A DNA stretch of 64,000 bases from Anaeromyxobacter sp. (GTDB taxonomy: Bacteria > Myxococcota > Myxococcia > Myxococcales > Anaeromyxobacteraceae): positions 96,001 to 160,000 of the forward strand of contig JASGJN010000022.1 of the NCBI GenBank assembly GCA_049840735.1. Direction: 5' to 3'. Below the pieces are notes generated by a model. It saw only the letters and a list, made by a program, of their open reading frames with translations, made no database searches and was not told where the DNA came from. The stretch's first letter is position 1. Each line of letters begins with the position of its first letter. A program made the position numbers and the translations under genes. Positions 32,890 to 48,711 of the stretch are shown in pieces.

Positions 32890-32905
32890 AAGGGCCCGGG
32901 GTGAA

Positions 32906-32938
32906 CCGCTCGTGGTGAGCCTGTCGAACCACGAGCGG
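32906..32938. repeat. Short palindromic REP-related element
   Basis: CCGCTCGTGG-TGAGCCTGTCGAA-CCACGAGCGG shares TGAGC and GTCGAA with the long REP family. Confidence 0.6.
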
Positions 32939-33046
32939 GAGTGCGCCCGCCTCCCCGTCCACCCGCCCTGGGCCACGATGGCGCTCGCCTCCGCCGCCCG
33001 GTCCGGCTAGTTTCCCCCTCCCACTCCAGCCGAGAGACGCCGAGCC

Positions 33047-34711
<1,665 letters not shown>

Positions 34712-34737
34712 CGAGCTACTCAGGCGCACAACGGGCA

Positions 34738-34790
34738 CCGTTCGGCCTGAGCGTAGCCGCCGCACCGCGGCGGCGAAGTCGAAGGCCAGG
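34738..34790 (-). repeat. REP-like element
   Basis: CCGTTCGGCCTGAGCGTAG-CCGCCGC ACC GCGGCGG-CGAAGTCGAAGGCCAGG. Confidence 0.85.
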
Positions 34791-34853
34791 AATCCGCTGG
34801 AGGGCCACCGAGATCGCGCCGCTTCGGTCCTGCCGCGCGGCTATGCTGCCGGT

Positions 34854-35349
34854 GTGATCGCCGCGCTCGCGCTCGCCCTCTTCGCCGCCGCCCCCAGCGC
34901 GGAGGCGCTCAGCCCGCCGGCGCTCCGCCTCCCGTCCGGCGTGGTCCCGCTGCGCGGCGAGCTGGAGCTGTCGGTCGATCCGGCCGCCGAGCGGAACGCC
35001 GGGACGGTCGCTACCAGGTCCGGCTCGACGCGCCGACGCCGGTGATTTGGCTCCACGCGCACGAGGCGGTGGAGCTCACCTCCGCGTCTGTGGCCGGCGC
35101 GCCGGTGCAGGTGGTGCGCGCACCGGGCGACTTGCTCGGGCTGGTCCCCGCGGCGCCCCTGGCCGCCGGGACGGTCGACGTGAAGCTGGAGTTCACCGCG
35201 GCGGTCAGCCGGTCGGGCAAGTACCACCGGCCCCTCGGCGTGCTGACGCACCAGGACGACGCTGGCGCCTGATACGCAGAGAGCTTCTTCGAGCCGCTCG
35301 GCGCGCGCCGCGCTTTCCCCTGCTTCGACGAGCCGTCGCTTCAAGGTGG
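34854..35349 (+). pseudogene. Truncated M1 family aminopeptidase (5' fragment only)
   Basis: Signal peptide, RLP..V.P, FFEPLGARRAFPCFDEPS-FKV motif; frameshift, in-frame TGA at 35270 and no HExxH catalytic part. Confidence 0.75.
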
Positions 35350-35450
35350 ACTGCCGGCCTGGCGGCGGCAGGGCGCTGGTGATCATCGACGCCGCTACAG
35401 CTTCGAGCGGGGCGAGTGGGTGGTGCGGAGGCGGACGGTGAAGGCCTCGC
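35350..35450 (+). pseudogene. Remnant of a paralog of the 41051-41797 candidate immunity gene
   Basis: VDCRP...RYSFERGEWVVRRRTVK resembles VSCER...RYVYSNGRWSVSRRKAT (manual alignment, one frameshift). Confidence 0.5.
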
Positions 35451-35503
35451 GGAGTGACTTTCGATAAAGTGAAAACCCCTGTGCATCAGGAGGGGCCCTG
35501 AGT

Positions 35504-35986
35504 ATGCGACCTTGTGGACGGGTGGTGGCGTGGTGCACGGCTCTTGTGATTTTGTCGGTGCCCGGAGGGGTTCTGGGTGGGGGAGGCGAACGAGTTGAGC
35601 CTTGGCGACAGTACGTTGGAAAAGCCGGCATGGGGCCTATAGCGGAAGAAGTGTATGTAGTCTTGAGGTCGGCCCACAATGAGCTGCTGGTGCGAGGAGT
35701 GAGTTGGAGAGGCGGAGCCGCTTCGAGTCGAGAGGTCGTCTTGGATAGGGGCTTCTCTTGCATGGCGCTCAGGCCAGCGCGGGGACACGCTCGCTGCTCT
35801 GGCCAGCCTCCTAGAATCCTGCTCCTCCTCGCCTCGGGCCTTGGCTGGCGCGGCGGCCGGGGCAGGAAGTGGGCCGAGAGCCTGGCGGCGGGCACTGCAA
35901 TCGTCGCGCTATCCACCCTGCTCGGAATCTCGCTGGCCTGGGTGAGCCGGTCCTTCGTCCTGGTGGAGGTCGGGCATGAACGCTGA
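35504..35986 (+). CDS. Hypothetical, probably chimeric ORF (lower-GC 5' part with signal-like segment)
   Basis: SD AGGAGG upstream; AT-richer 5' half; no recognisable motif. Confidence 0.3.
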   Translation: MRPCGRVVAWCTALVILSVPGGVLGGGGERVEPWRQYVGKAGMGPIAEEVYVVLRSAHNELLVRGVSWRGGAASSREVVLDRGFSCMALRPARGHARCSGQPPRILLLLASGLGWRGGRGRKWAESLAAGTAIVALSTLLGISLAWVSRSFVLVEVGHER

Positions 35987-36581
35987 TTCCGCCCTGGTGA
36001 CGGCCGGGCTTCTGTGGTGGCTGGCCCACGGCCTCGCCTGGTGGTGGCTCGCCAGGCGGCTGGCGGATCCCGAGGAGGCGAGCCGTGACGGTGAGGAGCG
36101 CAAGGTCCGGAGGGGCCTCCGCTGGCTGCTCGCGCTGGCCCTTTCCCTGGGAGTTCCGGTCGGCATCCCAACCGCAATCGTCTTGGTGTGGGGCCTCGAC
36201 CCAGGGGTGGTGGATCCGGCGGTGATGGGCGCCGCCTTCGGCGCGGTGATCATGTTGATCCCGCTGGTGGACCTGGCCCGCGAGGCTCGCAGGATGGAAG
36301 ATCAGCGACTCGCGGGCGAGCCCGTCGACCCTTCCTGCAGCATCTGGGTCAGCTCGGGGACCACGGGGCTGGCGGTCCCCTGGTGGTGGCCACAGGATCG
36401 CCTGGACTGGATCGCGCTGCTCGCCCTGGCGTCGGCGTGGCTCGTGAGCTGGCGGGTGGGGATCACCGTGCTCTGCGCGGCCGCCTGGGCCTGCACGATG
36501 TGGCTGCTGATGCTCGAGGCCCGGCGCCGGCCGCCGGAGCGGTGGAGGCGCCCGCGACGAGGCAAGGTTCGGGGGCCTTGA
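35976..36581 (+). CDS. Hypothetical polytopic membrane protein
   Basis: SD GGAGG, several Trp-rich hydrophobic helices. Confidence 0.55.
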   Translation: MNADSALVTAGLLWWLAHGLAWWWLARRLADPEEASRDGEERKVRRGLRWLLALALSLGVPVGIPTAIVLVWGLDPGVVDPAVMGAAFGAVIMLIPLVDLAREARRMEDQRLAGEPVDPSCSIWVSSGTTGLAVPWWWPQDRLDWIALLALASAWLVSWRVGITVLCAAAWACTMWLLMLEARRRPPERWRRPRRGKVRGP

Positions 36582-36671
36582 GGCAGAGACGACGAAGCCC
36601 CAGGCCGCGATGGCGGACCGGACCGCGACGAGCCGTCTGCCGACCAGGCCCGCCTCAGCTGGCTGGAGCGG

Positions 36672-37107
36672 GTGGCACTGGGCGCGCTGGAGTGCGCCCT
36701 GCTGGGGGTTCCCGCCGCGTCGCGGGGGGCGGAGCCGGCGTGCGGCGAGGATCCCGCCCTATGGGCCTTCCTCCGGGTCGGCCAGGCGCACCGGGACGGG
36801 GACACGTCGTTCAGATTCGCCTGCGCCAGGGTGGACCTGGGCGGCGACGGGTCGCCCGAGGAGACGGCACCACGGGTGGCGCGACCTGGGAGTCTGGGTG
36901 GCGGGAGGGGGCGTGACGCCGCACGAAGCGGCAGTCGAGTTCAATGGGACCCGGTACGCGGGCAATCCGAGCATGACGCGGACCACTACCACCGAGAAGG
37001 GCGCCGTGCTGATCCCGAGCGACGCGCCGCTCTACGTGCTGACCCGGTTGGCGGACGCGCGCCGCGCCTCCAGCCATCTACGAGGCGGGGATCGGGCGAC
37101 GAGGTGA
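36672..37107 (+). pseudogene. Degraded exported hypothetical protein
   Basis: VDLGGDGSPE in one frame and GWRDLGVWVAGGG...FNGTRYAGNPS in another; look like parts of one protein with an internal deletion. Confidence 0.4.
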
Positions 37108-37664
37108 AGGACGGCCGGGCCCGGCTGCACTGGGACAGCCCGGTCCACCTCGCGTCGCCCGACGGTCGCTGGCGGCTGGAGCTGCGCCCCAGCGCGGAGG
37201 CCGGGAGGGCCTATCTGCGCAACGCCTCGGGCGGTGAGGCGAAGCCGCTCTTCACGGTGGATCGGGACGCGCAGCTGCGCTGGGGGCGCGCGGGCGGGCA
37301 AGACCCCCTGCTCCTGGAGGACGAGTACGCCAGCAACGAGCACCGGCTGAAGCTGTTCCGGCTGGGACGGGCGCAGCCGGAGGCCGAGACGCTCGCGATC
37401 AACGCGCTGATTGACCAGGAGTAGCAGAGGCAGCGCCCGGCCGGTCGAAAGGTCGCGTACTACTTCCCGACAGTCGCCGCCTGGGTGGCCGACGACATCA
37501 CGGTGGCCGTGGGCGTGGTGCATGCTCTCGCCGGCGGCGGCCCCTATCAAACCGACTGCAGGGGCTACGTGGTCCGCGTGGGCAACGGCCCGCGCATCCT
37601 CGCCAGGTTCTCGCAGGCGGAGCTGAAGGAGCTGCTGGGCGTGGAGTGCCAGGTCTGGCCGTAG
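37104..37664 (+). pseudogene. Hypothetical beta-rich protein interrupted by an in-frame TAG (37422-37424)
   Basis: Coding-like sequence (SPDGRW..., YYFPTV..., DCRGY...ECQVWP) continues in the same frame past the stop. Confidence 0.45.
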
Positions 37665-37795
37665 GTGGCGGCGGCTAGGTGGTGGTGGCTCGGCGGAGTC
37701 CAGGCCCTAGCGAGGCGGCCCGACGTGTCGGTTCGAAGCCTTCACCTGCCTCACCGCCCTGCCGTGCAGGTCGCAGCTCGCGATAGACTCCCAGT

Positions 37796-38818
37796 ATGAA
37801 GCTCCGCCGCCCGGCCCTCGCCGCTGCCCTGGCCCTGCTCGCCGCCTGCAACTCGTCCAGCGGCGCCGCCACCACGCCCCCGGTCGATCCGCCTCCGCCG
37901 CTGGCGCCGGGGCCGCTCTTCACCGGCGCCGTCCCCTGGAACGACCCGGTCGACGCCGCCCCGCTCTCGGACAGTTCCACGGCCATGCTGGACGCGCTGG
38001 AGTCGGCCGGCGGCTGGGGCATGGGGAACGTCCTGCGCATCGACTTCTCGCTGGCGGTGATCCCCGGCGACGCGAACAGCGCGCGGGTGCCGCTGGTGAA
38101 GCGGAGCGGCTACTGGGCGCCGGACTGCGACGACCTGGCCAGCTTCCCGCTGCCGGCCGGCGGCGCGGCGGAGGGGTCGAGCAGCTACGCCTGCAGCGGC
38201 GGCGACTGCCACGTGCTGGTGGTGGACCAGGACGCGGGCGTGCTCTACGAGTCCTACATCTCCAACCAGACCAGCGCCGGGCTGCAGTCGCGGTGCGCGG
38301 TGGCCTGGGATCTCGGAAAGGACTACGGCGCCACCCTGCGCGGAGACCAGTGCACCAGCGCCGACGCGGCCGGGCTGCCCATGGCCGCCTTGCTCTTCAC
38401 CGCCGACGAGGTGGCGGCCGGGTCAATCGACCACGCCATCCGCTTCATCCTGCCCAACGAGCGGATGCGGGCCGGCGTCTACGTCCGCCCCGCCACCCAC
38501 GCCGGCGCGCCCTCCGGCGGCGACGCGCTCCCGCCCTACGGCACCCGGCTGCGGCTGCGGGCCGACTACCCGCTGGACACGCTCCCCAGCGACGGCGCGC
38601 GGGTGGTGGCGGTGGCGCTGCAGCGGTACGGGATGGTCCTGGCCGACGGCGGCAACATGGCGCTCACCGCGGCGGACGACCGGTTCACGGCGCACGGCTG
38701 GGACGAGGTGGGGATCGACACCCGCTCCCTGGCGGCGCTGTCCACCGGGGACTTCGAGGTCGTGGATCCGGGCGCCGAGCCAATCGCGATCACCTACGAC
38801 TGCGTGCGGGTGCCGTGA
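37796..38818 (+). CDS. Hypothetical lipoprotein (SADAAGLP family)
   Basis: Lipobox LLAAC; GDCHVLVVD, CTSADAAGLP, IDHAIRF, YGMVLADGG; host-like codon usage. Confidence 0.8.
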   Translation: MKLRRPALAAALALLAACNSSSGAATTPPVDPPPPLAPGPLFTGAVPWNDPVDAAPLSDSSTAMLDALESAGGWGMGNVLRIDFSLAVIPGDANSARVPLVKRSGYWAPDCDDLASFPLPAGGAAEGSSSYACSGGDCHVLVVDQDAGVLYESYISNQTSAGLQSRCAVAWDLGKDYGATLRGDQCTSADAAGLPMAALLFTADEVAAGSIDHAIRFILPNERMRAGVYVRPATHAGAPSGGDALPPYGTRLRLRADYPLDTLPSDGARVVAVALQRYGMVLADGGNMALTAADDRFTAHGWDEVGIDTRSLAALSTGDFEVVDPGAEPIAITYDCVRVP

Positions 38819-38819
38819 G

Positions 38820-39221
38820 GTGGCCTTCCCGTCCTTCCGCGTGAGCTCCATCGACGACCTCCTGGCCCGCCAGACGCCGGCGGTGGCGGCGCTGGTCCAG
38901 GCGGCGCGCCGCCGCGTCCAGGAGGTGGTCCCGGAGGCGGCGGAGCGGCTCCGCGCAGGCTGGGGGATCATCGGCTACGACGCGCCACGCTACTTCGCCT
39001 TCGTCGCGCCGGCGAAGGACCATGTCCGGATCGGCTTCGAGCGCGGGGTGCTGCTGGACGATCCGGCGGGGCTGCTGCAGGGCGAGGGGACACAGGTCCG
39101 CCACGTGGAGATCCGCGCCGCGCGCCAGCTCCGGTCGGCCGCGCTGGCCGCGCTGCTCAGGCAGGCGGCGAGGCTGGGCGGGTCGGGGAAGGCGCGGCGC
39201 AAGGCGGCTGGCCGGCGCTGA
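38820..39221 (+). CDS. DUF1801 (YdhG-like) domain protein
   Basis: HVRIGFERGVLLDDPAGLLQGEG.QVRHV motif. Confidence 0.75.
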   Translation: MAFPSFRVSSIDDLLARQTPAVAALVQAARRRVQEVVPEAAERLRAGWGIIGYDAPRYFAFVAPAKDHVRIGFERGVLLDDPAGLLQGEGTQVRHVEIRAARQLRSAALAALLRQAARLGGSGKARRKAAGRR

Positions 39222-39479
39222 CGGCTCCGGGGGGGGCGCCGTCCGCTGCAGATGCCCGTTGCCTCGCGGCGGTTGGCCGGGCCAGCGGGGAGGTCGAGGT
39301 GGCGGAGGCGTTCGCGGGCGCGCTGGAGCGACTCGGCCCGCGGCGGGCCCAGGTCCCTGCGGAGGGAAACCCGGCGTGAACGATGCGCGGGACGCGTTGT
39401 GCCTCCGAGCGCGGACCGGGCCCGGTTACGGTGCGATAGGTCCTCCGTCGAGCTGCTCGGCGGAGCCCTGGAGGCTTTG

Positions 39480-41013
39480 ATGCCCACGCTCCGCACTGCC
39501 GCCCGCGTCCTGCTCTTCTCCCGCAGACGCATCCTCGCCGCCGGCCTCGTGCTCGGGCTGGTGCTCCTCCCGACTCCGGCGCGCGCCGACGCGGGCATCC
39601 CCATGCTCGCGCTCCTCTGGCCCGCCTCCTGGGTCCTGTTCCTGCCCGTTGTCGCCCTCGAGGCCTGGCTGGCCCGGCGGATATACGAATACGATCTGTT
39701 CAAGCATCTCGTGTCCGTGAGCAGGGCCGGGGGGGAGAGCGAGAAGCTCTACTATGCTCCCGGGGGCGAGTTGCTCTATCGCCAGATCGGAAGCCGCTTC
39801 GTCTTCTACATGGGGGAATACGGGACGATCACCGCGACTGGACAGGCCGGATGCTCGGGCGCGGCCTGCGCTCCCGCTGCTCCTGCGTTGGATGCTCACG
39901 TCATCTTCGCCGGGACGAGATTGGCGAGCTTCAGGCCGAGTCGTTCTCTCTATTACTACAGAAGCCGGCTGGGGTCGGTCGTTGCCACTACGCTGGGGGG
40001 TGCCAGCCTTCGGGCGGGTTATCGCTACAGCGTGTATGGCGAGACGGAGGCTCGAACGGACTGGGACTCCAACGGCGATGGGCAGATTAACGAGCTGGAC
40101 GACAGCTACTCGGAGTTGGGCTACACCAATGCCGTGCGGCTCAGCGGTTCGCTTATCCACCTGAAGAACCGAGTCTACGACGCGCAGGCTCGCGTGTTCC
40201 TCCAGTGCGACACGGTCGACCGGTTGCGCTATGCGTATGTGGAGGGCGATCCCGTGAACGGGGCGGATCCGACCGGGCTGGCCACCACCCAGACCTCGGC
40301 TCAATCGGGAGGCGAGAAGGTTTATTACGTGCGCCGCGGGGACGAGTTGCAGGTTGTAACCAGGAGCGCCAATGGGAAGCTGAGTATCGTGGCGAGTTTG
40401 GACACTGCGCACCTTACTGCCGAAAACGTGAAGGCGTTTGCGGATAAGGTAGCACTCGCGGTCGAAAAGACTGAGCGCGGTGCCGCGGGGCGGTGGTCGG
40501 GTGAGGGGGCAGCCAAGTTTGGTTCGGTCACGGGGACCGCGAACGGGGTGACGACTTCCATCGTGTCTCTCCGTGAAGGCACCAACCTCGACATCTCGAT
40601 CGAGAATCGTCATGGCAACATCACGTATCGCGACAATAACCCCGGAAACTTGAGAATCGAGTGGCGCGCAGGTGGGCCACGATCCGGCGGGATTCGCCAT
40701 CTTTGGGTCGAGCCTGGAAGGGTTCGACGCGATGGATGATCTTCTGCGGGGCCCCAATTACATCGACAAGACGATCGACGAAGCGATTGCGAAGTATGCT
40801 CCTCGCAAGGACAATAACAAGACGTCCGAATATCAGCAGAGGGTCAGAGATGCGGCGGGGGTGAGTGGCAAGACGCGCCTGTCCGATCTCAGCGACAGTC
40901 AGTTTGAGCGCATGGAGCGGCAGATGTGGCGTGAGGAGGGGTTCTTCAATAACTTGAGGGATGGGAACCCGTGGACGAAGACCAGGAGTTACAGTATCGA
41001 GCCGCTGCCGTAG
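39480..41013 (+). CDS. Signal peptide-fused orphan Rhs core with C-terminal lysozyme-like toxin domain (frameshift near 40656)
   Basis: YEYD...YYY.SRLGSVV...Y.YSVYGE...GYT...NRVYD....FLQ.D...YAYVEGDPVNGADPTGL Rhs core; frame-corrected CT DNNPGNLR...GFAIF...TIDEAIAKYAPRKDNNKT. Confidence 0.8.
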
Positions 41014-41050
41014 GGTCGTTGGTCTCCATGCCCCGAGGGTGAGGCAGGTT

Positions 41051-41797
41051 ATGCGCTACATGGTGTTGGCTCTGCTGTTCGTGGGCGTGTGTCAACCGGC
41101 GTGGGTCTGGGCGGATCAGCCGACGAAGGGGTATGTCGAGGCGGCAAGCGTTCGGTATGGACCAGCCGGAGGAGAGGCCGGTGTACGGGTCGCGCTGTAT
41201 GTCGACGAGCGAATGACCAAGGACGTCCAGGGCCAGTTGTGGGGGCAGGGAGATTGGGCCGATGTCCTCCCGGCGGCATCGCCCGTCCGAAAGTCCTTCG
41301 CCGGGAATGCGCCCCGGCCAGCGCTGCTCGTCTTGCGGAATGAGCAGGGCGTGACCCTGGATCGACGGACTCTCGAGGTTGTCCTCGCACGCGTGGAGCA
41401 ATGGCCTGCCGGCATATCTCCAGATCGATCGTTGCTCTTAACCCTCGACTATACCGCTGGTGCGGGGTCCTATGGTGGGCTGGTCACGATGGTGGTCGGG
41501 GTAGTTGGGGGAAGGTTGGTGGATGTGTCGGCTGCAGATGAGTCGGCCGCGAACGGCCCGATACTGTTTTCTCGAACTGGAAAAGCGGACTGGAAATTCG
41601 CTCCGGGTTCCCCGCTTTCAGTACTCGCCGTGTCCTGTGAAAGAGCCGAGAACGGCGACGATGCTGCCGGCACGGGGTTCGAGTTGCTCTTGGAGCGGTA
41701 TGTGTATTCCAATGGGCGGTGGAGCGTGAGTAGGAGGAAGGCGACCGGTTATTGGGAGGTGGGTTACCCGTTCCCGTCTTTGAGGCGGTTCCCGTAG
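41051..41797 (+). CDS. Candidate periplasmic immunity protein
   Basis: Directly downstream of the toxin, same lower GC, Sec signal MRYMVLALLFVGVCQPAWVWA. Confidence 0.65.
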   Translation: MRYMVLALLFVGVCQPAWVWADQPTKGYVEAASVRYGPAGGEAGVRVALYVDERMTKDVQGQLWGQGDWADVLPAASPVRKSFAGNAPRPALLVLRNEQGVTLDRRTLEVVLARVEQWPAGISPDRSLLLTLDYTAGAGSYGGLVTMVVGVVGGRLVDVSAADESAANGPILFSRTGKADWKFAPGSPLSVLAVSCERAENGDDAAGTGFELLLERYVYSNGRWSVSRRKATGYWEVGYPFPSLRRFP

Positions 41798-42067
41798 CGT
41801 CCTGATAGACGCTGTGGCTCAGACGGCGGGATGCAGGTCGACCTGGCGGCGCTGGCCGGCGCTCCCCGGCTGGTGCTCCTCGCCGAGGGACCCGGGGCGG
41901 TCCTGCGGTTCCGACGCGGGACTTGGAGGCGGTGCGGGCGGCCTCCGCCGCCGAGGGGGTGGGCCCCCACGTGCACGCCTTGGGCCGCCCTGTGGCCGGG
42001 GGCCGAGAAGAATCGGCCGTCCCTCGTTCGGCCGGGTGTGGTGTTGTTAGTGAGTAGATGAATGACA

Positions 42068-47832: not shown

Positions 47833-48667
47833 GTGCCGGAGCTGCCGGAGGTCGAGTACGCCGCGCGCTGCCTGCGCCGCTGGACGGCGGGGCGCTGGAT
47901 CGAGGGGGTCGAGGTCGATCCGCGCGGCAAGCGGATCCTGCGCCCGGTCACGGCGCGCGCCTTCGCGGCCGAGCTGGTGGGGGCGCGCTTCGAGGCCATC
48001 CGCCGGGTGGGCAAGAACCTGCTCATCCAGCTGCAGCGCCCCAGCGGCCGGCCCACGGGCCTGTTCGCGCACCTGGGCATGACCGGCAAGTGGCTGCGCA
48101 CGGCGGCCGGCGAGCCGCCGCCGCGCCACGCCCGCGCCAGCTTCGCGCTCGACGACGGCAGCGCGCTGCACTTCAACGACCCGCGCCTCTTCGGCCGGCT
48201 CTGCCCGGTGCCGGGCGCCCGCTTCGAGGCGCTGCCGGCGCTGCAGGGGCTGGGGCCGGATCCGCTCGAGGACGGCATCGACCCGGCGCGGCTGCAGGCC
48301 GGCCTCGCGCGCACGAAGCTGCCGGTCAAGGTGAAGCTGCTCGACCAGCGGCTCCTGGCCGGCGTGGGGAACATCCACGCCAGCGAGGCCTGCCACCGCG
48401 CCCGCATCGACCCGCGCCGGGCCGCCCGCACGCTCACGCTGCCGGAGGTGAAGCGGCTCTCGGGGGCCATCCTGGCCTCGTTCCGGATGACGCTCCAGGC
48501 CGAGGACGGCCCGGGAGATCGTCTACGTCGAGGAGGGCGGCGAGAACCCGTTCCTGGTCTACGCGCGCGAGGGCGAGCGCTGCCCGCGCTGCCGCGCACG
48601 CGGGAAGATCGAGCGGCTGGTGCAGGCGCAGCGCTCCACGTTCTTCTGCCGGCAGTGCCAGCGGTGA
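47833..48667 (+). CDS. mutM: Formamidopyrimidine-DNA glycosylase (frameshift near 48512)
   Basis: MPELPEVE, HLGMTG, DPRLFG, GVGNI; Zn finger CPRC...FFCRQCQ in the shifted frame. Confidence 0.92.
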
Positions 48668-48711
48668 CCTTCTTCCCGCCGTGCGGGCCGGTCGTCTAGA
48701 CTCGTCTGCCG

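Follow-up and report, generated by a model that had tools for sequence, protein, structure and literature searches.

Orphan modules of Rhs proteins are composed of a remnant of the core, a variable C-terminus and an immunity gene. For Rhs proteins a DPxG motif has been described (PMC6833914). The closest described relatives of the toxin domain presented here are known from other settings. The Enc34 endolysin (PDB 7Q47; PMC8943055) serves phage lysis and bears a membrane domain at its C-terminus. According to this account lysis of permeabilised Gram-negative cells is brought about by its PHA02564 domain, which has the fold of a permuted all-helical lysozyme (alpha-lobe) and carries a proposed catalytic signature of Glu131, Tyr95 and Trp79; its classification as N-acetylglucosaminidase is the authors' inference, and the bond specificity was not measured there. 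An antibacterial effector with an Enc34-like domain and an immunity protein is already published as well, namely Tae5/V5 with Tai5a from Stenotrophomonas rhizophila's type VI secretion system (T6SS) (PMC13340143). In Tae5, a two-domain cargo linked to VgrG, the Enc34-like domain occupies the N-terminal position, and activity of this domain alone is not shown in that account; Tai5a has a size of 18.5 kDa. Finally, PliI, Tsi1 and XAC2610 (X-Tfi) are described as exported partners that block a hydrolase by an exposed loop inserted in its active site (PMC10933484).

Here, we analyse a locus in a window of 64,000 nucleotides from Anaeromyxobacter sp. (contig JASGJN010000022.1, positions 96,001 to 160,000 of the forward strand). 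With reasonable confidence we read it as a detached Rhs toxin–immunity cassette that encodes a likely glycosidase of Enc34 type and its likely periplasmic inhibitor, the toxin being probably undelivered from this copy (Table 1). With the Enc34 endolysin the domain shares the NNPGN motif, an aromatic residue followed by Ala-Pro, a tyrosine and a C-terminal glutamate, which are equivalent to Trp79, Tyr95 and Glu131; it differs in being the C-terminus of an Rhs protein, in a shorter loop after NNPGN and in the presence of a partner gene. With Tae5 and Tai5a it has in common the Enc34-like domain and an immunity protein with a signal peptide (predicted in the present case), whereas its position at the Rhs C-terminus is different; the downstream product P0003 is likened to Tai5a by description. 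The Rhs-borne form is new in so far as no Enc34-type domain was found described as Rhs C-terminus in the literature searched. From orphan Rhs modules the locus has the 3' core remnant, the DPxG motif, the variable C-terminus of low GC, the downstream immunity gene and a core that carries other C-termini in relatives. It deviates from them by its foreign 5' end, by the cell wall as predicted target and by the lack of a full-length parent, adjacent or elsewhere in the assembly. The likeness of P0003 to PliI, Tsi1 and XAC2610 consists in one near-invariant loop, and there is no sequence match to any of the three.

Table 1. Coordinates of the cassette and its neighbour (positions in the window) and of related fusion proteins
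Feature	Position	Strand	Basis or remark
First 67 codons of an unrelated gene for a membrane protein, in-frame fusion to the Rhs fragment	39480..39680	+	sequence match, GC3, hydropathy
Rhs core end, last 199 codons, with DPTG cleavage motif at 40266-40277	39681..40277	+	TIGR03696 above cut-off
Post-DPTG linker, ~94 aa	40278..40559	+	weak similarity to post-DPTG segment of the G017 Rhs
PHA02564/Enc34-type muralytic domain (predicted)	40560..41013	+	stop 41011-41013; family profile match
Landmarks in the lysin domain (P0002 numbering)	NNPGN 40635; Tyr79 40795; Tyr91 40831; Glu126 40936
+1 frame break within the 8-mer GAGAATCG	40652..40659	+	phase-switch statistics of the assembly
Predicted exported immunity/inhibitor protein P0003, 248 aa, unnamed family	41051..41797	+	loop DY[ST]xGxGSYxG at 41447-41479
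purL-like gene fragment directly 3' of the cassette	41824..42005	+	76% identity to intact copy on contig C7; purL identity by eye from translation
Fusion and membrane-anchored members of the P0003 family	L164:9164-10252; L165:9312-10520; L114:2255-3910		proteins P0160-P0204

Judged by sequence match, composition and hydropathy the open reading frame from 39480, which is preceded by GGAGG at 39470-39474, is a chimera with its first 67 codons from a different membrane-protein gene family. This 5' end encodes two hydrophobic segments (hydropathy); of 54 residues aligned with an ORF of genome G032, which continues differently, 46% are identical (E 4e-12). A second copy of the 5' end is missing in its own genome. 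Its GC3 of 0.94 is host-like. For the cassette GC3 amounts to 0.70-0.78 versus 0.94-0.98 in host-like neighbours. The Rhs core ends at DPTG, as the sequence-only reading had stated, and reaches 36.6 bits against TIGR03696 (cut-off 32.5 bits). It is 68%, 57% and 46% identical to the Rhs cores of G017, G009 and G049, respectively, and those three carry other C-termini; the DNA similarity to the G017 Rhs begins at 39684. Behind the motif the linker resembles the corresponding G017 segment with a local score of 46, which was reached by 3 of 5,000 shuffles, while BLASTP did not pick up this similarity. The 199 core codons correspond to residues 1270-1468 of the G049 Rhs (an ORF of 1,771 codons), the only part of it with a match in the genome studied here. 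The Rhs relatives in the genus (L121:1467-6782 in G049 and L011:7172-10675 in G017) look exported and not of PAAR type: the G049 protein begins with a short hydrophobic stretch (by eye) and contains DUF6443, and the C-terminus of the G017 protein ends in a Tox-WTIP segment.

By these features the locus is an orphan Rhs C-terminal/immunity cassette without Rhs delivery part: the full YD-repeat cage and the N-terminal delivery domain are absent. A homologous parent of its core was not found in the assembly (tblastn retrieved only the 39480 locus). At 94% completeness the genome contains four other Rhs-core matches, unrelated to the cassette core (tblastn), besides VgrG and TssC genes, so that the parent could be unassembled. 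Among 36 other members of the genus the core was found in three, each time with a different C-terminus, and the N-terminal fusion in none. The cassette is part of a stretch of ~9 kb (window ~32900-42060) between a TonB-receptor/lipoprotein pair and tsf that is absent in the complete relative G023; besides the Rhs cassette and the purL fragment, this stretch comprises an ABC-F ATPase gene and, near 34950-35380, aminopeptidase-like fragments (by eye). The view of the sequence-only reading that this is an orphan Rhs toxin thus holds for the C-terminal cassette; a deployed toxin is improbable. Because the delivery part is lost, the 5' end derives from a foreign membrane-protein gene and the assembly contains no homologous parent, delivery of the toxin from this copy is probably absent. 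The fusion junction itself could be a misjoin in the assembly. On contigs C4, C11, C13, C17, C19 and C22 of the same genome there are many very large YD-repeat ORFs, the longest open frame measuring 5,254 aa; several of these ORFs recur at contig ends.

The toxin domain was analysed as P0002 (150 aa), i.e. read through the frame break with an X. At E<=0.001 there are 1,948 matching protein clusters, the alignments extend across the break, and the reality of the domain is therefore far beyond chance. Matches were also obtained to PHROGs families labelled endolysin and tape measure, but neither to a Pfam family nor, as single sequence, to an entry of the PDB. A profile of 92 homologues aligned with gp29 (9VVP; residues 3-114, E 5e-23) and with the Enc34 endolysin (7Q47; E 1.6e-14). 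In the latter alignment Trp, Tyr and Glu of 7Q47 fall on Tyr79, Tyr91 and Glu126 of P0002, their positions lying one later than the numbers in PMC8943055 (the offset is inferred). Among 149 homologues Glu126 is conserved in 146, Tyr91 in 142, and an aromatic residue (Tyr, Trp or Phe) occupies position 79 in 143. The proposed catalytic signature (Glu131, Tyr95, aromatic 79) is thus complete in P0002. The profile matches assign the C-terminal domain to the PHA02564/Enc34 endolysin family; it is likely a peptidoglycan glycosidase of this type, from which we infer muralytic activity. A lysozyme-like phage lysin domain had been proposed from the sequence alone; the sharing with virion lysins and endolysins of phages supports this, and the family as such was already described.

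The Rhs-core motif precedes the lysin domain in 16 of the 149 top protein matches and in 9 of 79 genome loci. In other relatives the lysin domain is joined to VgrG, LysM/CHAP, PAAR-like or portal domains, and some carry it without Rhs. Of 50,697 phage records 488 are matched by an intact homologue. From this distribution the lysin domain is classified as a mobile conflict module. Metagenome-assembled genomes (MAGs) of Alphaproteobacteria, several of them named Candidatus Enterousia, contain a protein of ~330 aa that ends in the lysin domain and is followed by a membrane-anchored partner of ~205 aa (L015, L027, L069 and 27 more loci). Stand-alone lysin-domain proteins with an extra C-terminal domain, which is DUF3892 in L037, occur in Bdellovibrio-like and deltaproteobacterial MAGs (L037, L046, L048, L050, L054 and L083).

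In the assembled sequence the toxin domain is distributed over two frames. RDNNPGNL (near 40635) lies in the frame of the Rhs core and the remainder (GFAIF..YAP..N..Y..EEG, up to the stop) in the +1 frame; since the latter has a TGA at 40651, the break falls at about 40652-40659. The sequence-only reading had placed a one-base break near 40656 with the domain continuing behind it, which agrees with this position and with the cluster alignments. Comparison with a complete relative covered 192 conserved genes (195 kb) and revealed frameshifts of this assembly in 14 of them; of the 16 shifts 13 are +1, and three that were mapped precisely sit on GAATC. When third-position phase was followed genome-wide in high-GC3 genes, to which this test is confined, a +1 switch appeared at 318 of 553 testable GAATC sites and at 43 of 45 testable copies of GAGAATCG. 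For well-sampled control motifs the proportions were 1-4% (GAACT 43/3,788, CAATC 20/525, GAATG 5/141), and in the complete relative the switch occurred at 1 of 17 GAATC sites in 400 kb. As 43 of 45 copies of the same 8-mer also shift the frame, the break in the toxin is very likely an artefact, i.e. probably a systematic base-calling error of the assembly; methylation-related miscalling of long reads at GATC may be the cause. The 8-mer does not always mark an error, because the second copy in the island (40602-40609) keeps the frame. In an fpg/mutM-like gene (window 47833-48699; identity by eye) the frame changes within a G run beside GATC, near 48510-48516, probably an artefact of the same kind. 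In this assembly, frameshifts located at GAATC are best regarded as artefacts, and frameshift-based findings from this genome are suspect.

The partner P0003 starts with a hydrophobic segment (hydropathy). As single sequence it matches only itself; its family has no counterpart in Pfam and no sequence match in the PDB, and none of 30 members matched a Pfam family of known lysozyme inhibitors (PliI, Ivy, MliC/PliC, Tsi1, XAC2610) at E<=0.1. The Atlas rows with named families are under the Atlas bar (PliI row 0.81). What characterizes the family is the near-invariant loop listed in Table 1. Seen from the toxin side, 71 of 79 lysin-domain loci have a downstream ORF: 30 of these belong to one membrane-anchored family, 24 are DUF4431-like, two are P0003 homologues (L038, E 5e-36; L037, E 4e-13) and the rest forms small groups. 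In all nine loci with a preceding Rhs the next gene is either DUF4431-like (eight) or a P0003 homologue (one), and L038 contains two toxin–partner pairs in tandem, one DUF4431-like and one of P0003 type. Seen from the partner side, the lysin domain is located directly upstream of the P0003 homologue in 4 of 25 metagenomic loci (L091, L093, L097 and L112), the toxin of L097 being a long Rhs. This brings the homologues directly behind the same toxin domain to six. Among metagenomic homologues with at least 500 nt of upstream sequence 4 of 19 are toxin-adjacent and 15 have no toxin nearby, and in 10 further genome loci the toxin domain was not found near the homologue. No other recognisable toxin type lies directly upstream in the 25 metagenomic loci. 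In a tree of 51 rows P0003 falls in a clade (support 100/97) with five of the six toxin-adjacent homologues, a position that is unsure because of its very long branch (1.96).

The product of the downstream gene is likely a periplasmic inhibitor of the Enc34-type enzyme, as predicted from its N-terminus and the adjacency of homologues. A periplasmic immunity protein, possibly of an uncharacterised family, had been proposed in the sequence-only reading; six of its homologues lie behind the same toxin domain, and most stand alone. Because most homologues have no adjacent toxin, the P0003-type protein may be a general rather than a strictly cognate inhibitor. The exported DUF4431-like proteins (L045:6378-6806 and 23 related loci) were observed behind the lysin domain in 24 of 79 loci and in eight of the nine Rhs cases; L045 scores above the Pfam cut-off and L025 just below. 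Immunity is a candidate function of DUF4431, a term for which no paper was found in the literature searched.

A family profile built from 30 rows yielded 47 protein matches, and the loop is kept in 42 of them. In 24 matches the immunity-like domain is C-terminal to HNH (10), DUF4062 (8), TIR (5) or SEFIR (1) modules (assigned by motifs, with Pfam and PADLOC labels). These fusions carry the whole domain, with the exception of one truncated TIR match, and have neither a signal peptide nor a membrane helix between the modules. Five further matches have an N-terminal hydrophobic segment and most of the remaining ones are partial. In the tree the fusions form one clade with a support of 100/100 and a long stem. 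All three loci considered have defence-like neighbours, namely a type I RM system ~4 kb off (L164), a second TIR gene (L165) and an Mrr-like nuclease (L114); this is a small sample, and two of the matches are weak. The same effector modules stand N-terminal to a conserved partner domain in CBASS HNH-SAVED, TIR-SAVED and bSEFIR effectors (PADLOC models), whereas in the fused clade the C-terminal domain is the immunity-like family. PADLOC matches cover the effector end of the fusions (the bSEFIR match on P0172 runs ~50 residues into the C-terminal domain), and the C-terminal domain was in no library searched.

Several features of the locus would also fit other explanations. If the frameshift were genuine, the toxin would be a pseudogene, inactivated for example after the fusion had given it an export-like N-terminus, with only the immunity gene kept. 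Gene fragments abound in the region, the copy of the 8-mer located 50 bp upstream is genuine, and selection on an already truncated cassette may be relaxed. We nevertheless regard this as quite unlikely, given that the break sits in the motif of the dominant error of the assembly, that all catalytic positions are intact and that a repair by a single base produces a loop of 12-13 residues, which is present in intact homologues (19 of 228). The opposite possibility is that the chimera functions as it stands, its borrowed ribosome-binding site, signal-like segment and helix expressing and anchoring the cassette, and DPTG self-cleavage freeing an enzyme that, kept in check by the inhibitor, cuts the walls of its own cell or of neighbours. 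This is favoured by the in-frame fusion, the good GGAGG, the presence of both aspartates flanking the cleavage motif and the relatives that have the domain without Rhs. An Rhs core of 199 residues cannot form a cage, however, and the fusion was seen in no other genome, including the three of 36 genus members with the core. Moreover, hydropathy suggests that the enzyme would stay in the cytoplasm after a signal-like segment, if this is cleaved, and a single helix that ends in ARR. We therefore give this reading little credence.

With respect to the partner it might be argued that P0003 does not inhibit the enzyme and that it is exported for some other function, its gene having been captured behind the toxin in some cases. 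A mostly stand-alone family, with one clade fused to cytoplasmic effectors and without a match to known inhibitor families, would be compatible with that. Yet adjacency to this rare toxin domain was met six times independently and from both search directions, other toxin types are missing directly upstream in the 25 loci, and the slot is shared with the DUF4431-like family, both pair types standing in tandem in L038. This explanation is thus unlikely.

For the detached cassette with its inhibitor, the preferred reading, the following mechanism is proposed. If the parent were intact, its cage would undergo export and cleave itself at DPTG, releasing linker and enzyme. Glu126, together with Tyr79 and Tyr91, would then cut the glycan strand of the rival's wall, by extrapolation from Enc34. 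The partner, likewise exported, would block the groove of the enzyme, most likely with the invariant GSYxG loop, by analogy with PliI, Tsi1 and XAC2610. With the frame break as a likely assembly error and the delivery part lost, the useful product in its own genome would likely be the inhibitor, as a guard against the Enc34-type lysins that rivals, and perhaps phages, produce.

A conserved domain that bears interchangeable suicide effectors represents the usual layout of anti-phage sensors. By its architecture the fusion clade is a candidate for such sensors, and its immunity-like domain may sense phage lysis proteins. We tentatively suggest that the unnamed domain binds Enc34/PHA02564-type lysins in two roles, i.e. 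as exported antidote against Rhs wall toxins and, in one clade, as cytoplasmic receptor of single-gene suicide defences that detect a freshly synthesised phage endolysin or ejectosome lysin. If the domain does bind such lysins, the simplest trigger would be the phage's own lysin made in the cytoplasm. This proposal is doubtful at present, as the long stem of the clade leaves room for a changed ligand; no report of such a sensor was found in the literature searched, including the available text of PMC12803255.

The present analysis gives a widespread, Pfam-less Rhs toxin domain a name as predicted wall hydrolase of Enc34 type with testable catalytic residues. It ties at least three partner families to one enzyme family as candidate inhibitors, i.e. 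the P0003 family, the DUF4431-like proteins and the membrane-anchored proteins of Alphaproteobacteria, and these could also limit phage lysins of Enc34 type. The interest of the locus comes mostly from the partner family. Should the fused clade sense phage lysins, this would link interbacterial immunity with anti-phage sensing and provide a defence system with a known trigger; a toxin-immunity protein would have turned into a phage pattern-recognition sensor whose trigger was predicted in advance.
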